Positions 1 through 353 of a DNA stretch of 353 bases are shown here, in pieces; position 1 is the first letter of the stretch; the number at the start of each line of letters is the position of its first letter. The stretch lies in assembly GCF_003334815.1 (NCBI RefSeq), contig NZ_QOWO01000135.1. One strand, given 5' to 3'. The stretch is from Escherichia coli. GTDB taxonomy: Bacteria > Pseudomonadota > Gammaproteobacteria > Enterobacterales > Enterobacteriaceae. The notes beneath the pieces were generated by a model. That model searched no databases. It was not told where the DNA came from and saw nothing but the letters and a program-made list of their open reading frames with translations. A program made the translations under genes and the position numbers.

Positions 1-353
1 CCAGCCACAGAAATCACAGCCCTGTTCGGCATACCAGTGCTCCAGCGTGCAGCTGAAACGGCGGCTTAATTCTGCAACAACGTCGCTTTCCGGCTGACAC
101 CACGGCGTGTCGAAATCCACCTGAATGAAGTTTTCCCCCTGACTGCTGATATTCAGGTCATACCCACAAGGCCACTTCACGCCATACTGTTCCGTATACC
201 AGTGATATGCAGAAGGAACACCGTTCAGAACACCACCGTTGAAGCCATTCACTTCAACATCCAGGCGGGTCGGCAGAACCGTCAGCAGGTCAAACGGCAT
301 GGTTTTTTCCGGCAGTACGTTGTCACACAGACGGTTCCACCACACCGATACAT
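1..353 (-). CDS. Internal fragment of a protein-coding gene (partial at both ends); hypothetical Trp/Cys-rich protein of unknown function
   Basis: Reverse-complement frame with codons at + strand 351..1 is open for all 117 codons (bases 352-353 belong to a partial codon). Translation: VSVWWNRLCDNVLPEKTMPFDLLTVLPTRLDVEVNGFNGGVLNGVPSAYHWYTEQYGVKWPCGYDLNISSQGENFIQVDFDTPWCQPESDVVAELSRRFSCTLEHWYAEQGCDFCGW. Codon usage is typical of Enterobacteriaceae (CTG, CCG, GGT, AAC, CAG, GAA). The only other long open frame (+ strand, 70-353) has no ATG and is rich in rare codons, consistent with an antisense shadow. No in-frame stop, so the true start and stop lie outside the window. Confidence 0.8.
22..39 (-). 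repeat. Intragenic direct repeat, copy 2 (encodes EHWYAEQ on the minus strand)
   Basis: Partner of the 187-204 repeat: same frame, 16 of 18 nt identical, both encode H-W-Y-[T/A]-E-Q. Confidence 0.6.
187..204 (-). repeat. Intragenic direct repeat, copy 1 (encodes YHWYTEQ on the minus strand)
   Basis: + strand 187-204 ctgttccgtataccagtg matches 22-39 ctgttcggcataccagtg at 16 of 18 positions; the copies are exactly 165 nt (55 codons) apart and in the same reading frame. Confidence 0.6.

Follow-up and report, generated by a model that had tools for sequence, protein, structure and literature searches.

The window analysed here, a 353-nt stretch of Escherichia coli DNA taken in its entirety, is very probably an internal piece of a single gene of 308 codons, intact and encoded on the minus strand, as judged from sequence comparison, and the ATG at 298-300 would then be internal to that gene and not its start. 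As such, the codon is an unremarkable internal methionine codon in an already annotated and widespread gene. It resembles a start, and is one in legacy annotation (that of YubB), only because a run of six adenines close by changes in length among plasmids. The features on which the argument turns are given below in window coordinates.

1 to 351, minus strand: DUF1281/Api92-like gene, codons 147-263 of 308, assigned from identity to L001, the ORF at L001 3565-4491 and Pfam; intact counterpart of yubA plus yubB of plasmid F
325 to 342, minus strand: codons W150, W151 ... C155; W151 invariant and C155 at least 90% conserved in the alignment
303 to 308, minus strand: run of six adenines (A6; T6 on the plus strand) in codons Glu161-Lys162-Thr163, three bases 5' of the ATG; its length differs between plasmids
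298 to 300, minus strand: ATG, probable internal Met164 codon, with weak anti-Shine-Dalgarno pairing, an unconserved residue and a predicted loop
282 to 284, minus strand: out-of-frame TGA, without a role in the A6 allele; where the run is A5 (F-type), it lies 16 nt past the ATG and terminates YubA

Gene identity and distribution

The window is 100% identical to positions 4001-4353 of L001 (NZ_AP018803.1, plasmid pE2863-1), its minus strand corresponding to the plus strand of L001, and is matched at 100% in at least 20 F-like plasmids among the matches listed. Matches to the window were found in 3,926 records and in 3,086 of the 5,426 complete E. coli genomes, almost always on plasmids, as well as in 4,834 PLSDB plasmids, which were mostly conjugative and came from Escherichia, Salmonella, Shigella and Klebsiella. 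Every match is annotated as "DUF1281 domain-containing protein". Both ends of the gene fall outside the window; at the distal end it runs 138 nt past window position 1, to a stop codon at L001 4489-4491.

The open reading frame

On the minus strand, the frame reads VSVWWNRLCDNVLPEKT before the ATG (300-298) and continues as MPFDLLTVLPTRLDVEVNG... (MPFDLLTVLP...). The original prediction described a 100-codon ORF opened by this ATG and a frame that stays open upstream to the window edge, and was accurate on both counts: the distance from the ATG to window position 1 is exactly 100 codons, and the 17 window codons upstream hold no stop. An opening of 17 codons has a chance of (61/64)^17, or about 0.44, and is not significant alone. 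The frame as a whole is free of stops in all 117 window codons, for which the chance is about 0.004, and each of the other five frames contains between one and six.

Beyond position 353, the frame remains open for a further 611 nt in the identical plasmid pE2863-1, up to a TAA at L001 3388-3390. Extension to the first in-frame upstream stop had been proposed as a check of the longer gene, and the stop so found is this TAA rather than one immediately past the edge; among identical database contexts, none showed an in-frame stop just beyond position 353. The stretch 5' of the ATG can moreover be recognised as protein-coding because W151 (window 339-337) and C155 (window 327-325) are conserved there. 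Downstream of Met164, residues D167, L172, P173, R175, L176 and D177 are invariant in our alignment of 18 sequences. As conserved residues lie on both sides of Met164, conservation passes straight through the ATG.

Protein family and structure

The predicted protein matches PF06924 (DUF1281) with an E-value of 3.6e-48 over residues 30-206, covering the model completely (1-177 of 177), and PF18406 (DUF1281_C, a C-terminal ferredoxin-like domain) with an E-value of 8.9e-15 over residues 209-282. Window codons 147-206 fall inside the first of these matches and codons 209-263 inside the second. An AlphaFold model generated from the alignment has a mean pLDDT of 84 and a pTM of 0.78, and the invariant N-terminal strand, MPNWCxNR, occupies residues 4-12 in it.

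Comparison of this model with the PDB using Foldseek returned 2IJR, the Api92 protein of Yersinia pseudotuberculosis (E 9.8e-24; TM-scores 0.81 and 0.88; 287 columns; 33% identity), and no other match at E ≤ 0.001. With Api92 as the sole PDB match, no functional analogue emerged. Api92 contains the same two Pfam domains at full model length and shares the N-terminal (M)xxWCxNR strand with our protein. It differs in having a cysteine in place of Met164 and in genomic setting, its gene being situated in a chromosomal pathogenicity island, whereas the gene described here is situated in a plasmid leading region.

Searches of NCBIfam and PADLOC with the full protein found no family, and a search of PHROGs returned only families of unknown function. 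Literature searches on DUF1281, on yubA/yubB and on yubB together with the leading region found no functional study, and neither DUF1281 nor Api92 is mentioned in the main text of the 2024 Nature paper on the leading region. Several database proteins (P0015, P0016, P0017, P0022, P0107 and P0119) contain DUF1281 fused to PsiB, FinO, DUF1380, IS66 TnpB or methylase domains. These fusions are likely to represent deletions or rearrangements of the leading region, or chimeras of assembly or gene calling.

Position of the translation start

Two candidate starts, both upstream of the window, were compared. The RefSeq coding sequence (WP_023842311.1, 300 aa) starts at L001 3589 (MYFSGE...), 412 nt past the window edge. 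The ATG at L001 3565, 436 nt past the edge, is preceded by GAGAGGAGAATTCCC, which includes a GAGGAG Shine-Dalgarno sequence, and yields MPNWCSNRMYFSGE... (MPNWCSNR...), a protein of 308 aa. DNA, frame and stop are identical in the two, and they differ in that RefSeq starts at Met9, 24 nt downstream of Met1. When the 20 nt upstream of each in-frame ATG, GTG or TTG were paired with the 16S anti-Shine-Dalgarno sequence, the ATG at L001 3565 showed the strongest pairing of the 14 start-type codons (-9.1 kcal/mol).

Homologues give further information on the N-terminus. Residues M1, P2, N3, W4, C5, N7 and R8, encoded at L001 3565-3588, are invariant in the 18 homologues, down to 47% identity, and residue 9, at which the RefSeq model starts, is leucine or valine in 13 of the 18. 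Api92 (PDB 2IJR, 300 aa) aligns colinearly with the protein, 3-274 to 3-274 (E 1e-49). The 308-position profile of phrog_37043 is matched from 1 to 308 of 308, and most database protein clusters have lengths of 304-312 aa at 100% coverage. The Shine-Dalgarno sequence, the invariant MPNWC, the colinearity with 2IJR and PHROG 37043 thus favour L001 3565 over the RefSeq start. On this evidence, the ATG at L001 3565 is most likely the start, although RefSeq/PGAP places it 8 codons downstream. The RefSeq/PGAP model of 300 aa is, by the same comparisons, probably too short by eight residues, which are the most conserved N-terminal ones (MPNWCSNR).

The choice between these starts leaves the ATG at 298-300 internal in either case, as Met164 of 308 or as Met156 in RefSeq numbering. 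A longer gene beginning past position 353, as had been proposed from the window alone, is therefore what both candidate starts describe.

The ATG at 298-300

The 12 bases 5' of this ATG are CCGGAAAAAACC. A Shine-Dalgarno sequence was sought before it and only -3.5 kcal/mol of pairing was found, equal to that of other internal ATG, GTG and TTG codons of the ORF and to be set against the -9.1 kcal/mol at the upstream start; the earlier reading that no convincing Shine-Dalgarno element precedes this codon is thereby borne out. The reading of the codon as an internal methionine agrees with its lack of conservation outside the closest alleles: in the 18-sequence alignment the column contains methionine in only four sequences, all with 90% identity or more to the query, and N, Q, E, R or A in the other 14, methionine being missing from every homologue at about 62% identity or less. 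Met164 falls inside the PF06924 match and, in the AlphaFold model, in a predicted loop of approximately residues 156-167, between a helical region and a C-terminal beta-rich region. Met164 is a lineage-specific residue, placed by the model in the linker between the helical and C-terminal beta-rich parts, and ribosomes most likely pass the ATG as an ordinary elongation codon. A scan of the window against Rfam at E ≤ 1 gave no matches, so that nothing points to an RNA element at either the ATG or the adenine run.

Some aspects of this locus could nevertheless be taken to indicate a genuine secondary initiation site, from which the intact allele would also produce a C-terminal isoform of 145 aa equivalent to YubB. 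The ATG follows by 3 nt an A-rich and probably unstructured stretch, and A-rich sequence before an ATG can allow some initiation independent of a Shine-Dalgarno sequence. The codon is located within the predicted inter-domain loop, and F-type alleles encode a 145-aa ORF from the homologous ATG. However, the anti-Shine-Dalgarno pairing here is no better than at other internal start-type codons, the absence of the methionine at 62% identity and below means that no isoform is conserved, and the product would start inside PF06924, without the invariant N-terminal strand. We consider such an isoform extremely improbable, and retain the reading of Met164 as an elongation codon.

Length of the adenine run and the YubA/YubB split

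In plasmid F (NC_002483), this gene is found at the equivalent point of the leading region, ahead of a small ORF and a DNA methylase gene, and differs from the window allele in being split. DNA alignment places GGAAAAACC (A5; L002 4337-4341) opposite the GGAAAAAACC (A6) of window 308-303. Because A5 replaces A6, a deletion of one nucleotide just before the ATG, the F gene is divided into YubA and YubB. Two ORFs are accordingly present in F, one ending in ...WWNRLCDNVLPEKPCRLTC at a stop codon and the other starting with MPFDLLTVLFTRLDVEV... at the counterpart of the ATG at window 298-300. By exact look-up they are the Swiss-Prot entries YUBA_ECOLI (168 aa) and YUBB_ECOLI (145 aa, starting MPFDLLTVLF). 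The upstream F ORF (L002 3811-4362) ends in ...PEKPCRLTC, and a 23-aa ORF of the window (282 to 353) ends in ...KKPCRLTC. RefSeq treats the F allele as a single, frameshifted pseudogene; the window allele is intact, with both halves in one 308-aa protein.

Entries beginning with MPFDLL have a direct bearing on the original prediction, in which homologues beginning at MPFDLLTVLP, along with an in-frame stop right past position 353, were named as what would speak for a start at 298-300. Entries starting MPFDLLTVL... do exist, YUBB_ECOLI among them, but they come from A5 alleles. Since they derive from a frameshift, they provide no evidence for a start at this ATG, and as the window carries the intact A6 allele, their existence leaves the longer gene in place. 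Some database names among entries of the YubB and YubA types are odd: the cluster members P0136 and P0162 comprise a 145-aa fragment of the YubB type called "putative aerotaxis sensor receptor, flavoprotein" and a 171-aa YubA-type entry attributed to Bacillus paranthracis. The former is probably a misannotation and the latter probably contamination.

Counting of the run gave A6 in L001, A5 in L002 to L006 and A7 in L007 (about L007 831-837). Both A5 and A7 break the frame, and RefSeq labels these alleles as frameshifted DUF1281 pseudogenes. An exact 75-mer of the window type, with A6, occurs in 302 records, and the exact F-type 74-mer, with A5, in 81 complete E. coli records. The latter include separately assembled F and F' strains (EMG2, XL1-Blue and NEB strains) in addition to isolates from cattle, goat, crow and patients. 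A sequencing error as the origin of the F frameshift was considered and rejected, the same A5 being present in independent modern assemblies of F/F' strains and in natural isolates.

Run-length changes on flanks of the window type are rarer. A7 was found there in three complete plasmids, RefSeq-flagged as frameshifted and stemming from early long-read assemblies, and A5 in two Logan assemblies. In one Logan contig, ERR4563283_6478 (L005 2323-3005), the methylase gene, too, is called as two pieces; a homopolymer sequencing error is therefore likely there and the A5 call doubtful. Among the matches listed for complete genomes, no exact full-length A5 match on window-type flanks was found, the best full-length match being at 98.7%. 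Five records in the band of at least 99% (A5, window-type flanks) ranked no higher than full-length matches of 98.7%, and are presumably partial alignments.

These variants raise the question of whether the adenine run and the ATG together constitute a switch, in which slippage between A6 and A5 or A7 would toggle the product between the fused protein and YubA plus YubB, with the ATG restarting translation by termination-reinitiation once the TGA 16 nt further on is reached. In favour of such a switch, A5 is a genuine, heritable state carried by 81 complete records, A7 occurs in three complete plasmids, A5 is seen on window-type flanks in the two Logan assemblies, and the upstream ORF of the A5 allele stops just past the ATG. 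Set against this, a run of six adenines is short for efficient slippage, as is generally known. The 81 A5 records, moreover, carry the flanking SNPs of F, and therefore look like one inherited mutation and not like recurrent switching. The A5 state on window-type flanks lacks an exact full-length representative among the complete-genome matches listed (98.7% at the top), the Logan A5 contigs with their split methylase (L005) suggest homopolymer errors, and the A7 records stem from long-read assemblies of early date. In RefSeq the A5 and A7 alleles count as pseudogenes, and the codons GAA-AAA-ACC form no canonical in-frame X XXY YYZ heptamer. We regard such a switch as very improbable. Little credence is likewise given to a split form, as in plasmid F, that stays functional, with Met164 as the reinitiation codon after slippage of A6, in place of a dead pseudogene. 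Programmed -1 frameshifting was a further candidate and was rejected, given that the zero-frame codons GAA AAA ACC end in ACC and not in AAN, and that the intact allele needs no frameshift.

Finally, the window might itself have come from a split, F-like allele, so that the ATG would open a downstream ORF of its own. Such alleles exist, as Swiss-Prot YubB attests. The window sequence refutes this origin, however: six adenines occupy 303-308 and the frame passes unbroken through the ATG, whereas split alleles have A5 or A7. Next to no probability attaches to it, and the ATG is best read as the internal Met164 codon of an intact gene.

Gene neighbourhood and the upstream region

Downstream of the gene in L001, and on its strand, come a small ORF that overlaps it by 4 nt, an orphan DNA methylase gene, DUF1380 genes and an antirestriction gene of the ArdB/KlcA type. 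Plasmid F has the same order, continuing with ssb, psiB and a hok-family toxin gene up to oriT/traM. In both L001 and F the gene is, by position and orientation, co-directional with the methylase, antirestriction, ssb and psiB genes, and the locus belongs to the leading region, the part of F-like conjugative plasmids that is transferred first. The left neighbour varies. Plasmid pE2863-1 has dinI-like, umuD and umuC genes (the last for a Y-family polymerase) on the opposite strand at L001 1218-3171, and F has sopA and sopB at L002 790-2927. Given these differing left neighbours, the DUF1281 gene and the hairpin described below appear to mark a boundary of the conserved leading-region module.

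Folded as single-stranded DNA, the 296 nt that precede the start reach -70.8 kcal/mol, compared with -52.0 ± 3.3 kcal/mol for shuffled sequences (z -5.66; 0/200). Approximately 240 nt of GC-rich sequence, at about L001 3300-3535, fold, when single-stranded, into a long, imperfect hairpin. A double-stranded, sigma-70-like promoter was sought in the upstream region on the strand of the gene and was not found. The operon of an M.EcoGIX-type methylase has been described as induced early in transconjugants, both for F and for the IncI plasmid pESBL, where it is driven by a hairpin of a new "class 3" of ssDNA promoters (PMC12672017, 2025). The hairpin upstream of our gene may correspond to the class 3 ssDNA promoter reported for the M.EcoGIX operon. 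The gene is the first after the hairpin-forming intergenic region and lies immediately ahead of the small ORF and the methylase gene; it would be expressed early in the recipient within the methylase operon, possibly from this ssDNA promoter hairpin.

Significance

The result carries little biological weight in itself, as a doubtful ATG has been confirmed as an internal codon of an annotated gene, and its value, a modest one, is for curation. Two points may be of use to curators, besides the homopolymer indel site itself. Firstly, the Swiss-Prot entries YubA and YubB are the halves of one DUF1281/Api92-like gene that was broken by a deletion of one nucleotide; a naive database look-up would therefore falsely trigger a test based on homologues that begin at MPFDLLTVLP, the entries found being products of broken alleles. 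Secondly, the RefSeq start probably leaves out the eight N-terminal residues. The gene to which the codon belongs is very common, occurring in approximately 55% of complete E. coli genomes, and uncharacterised, and it is located in the plasmid leading region, which is of current interest for anti-defence and establishment functions.
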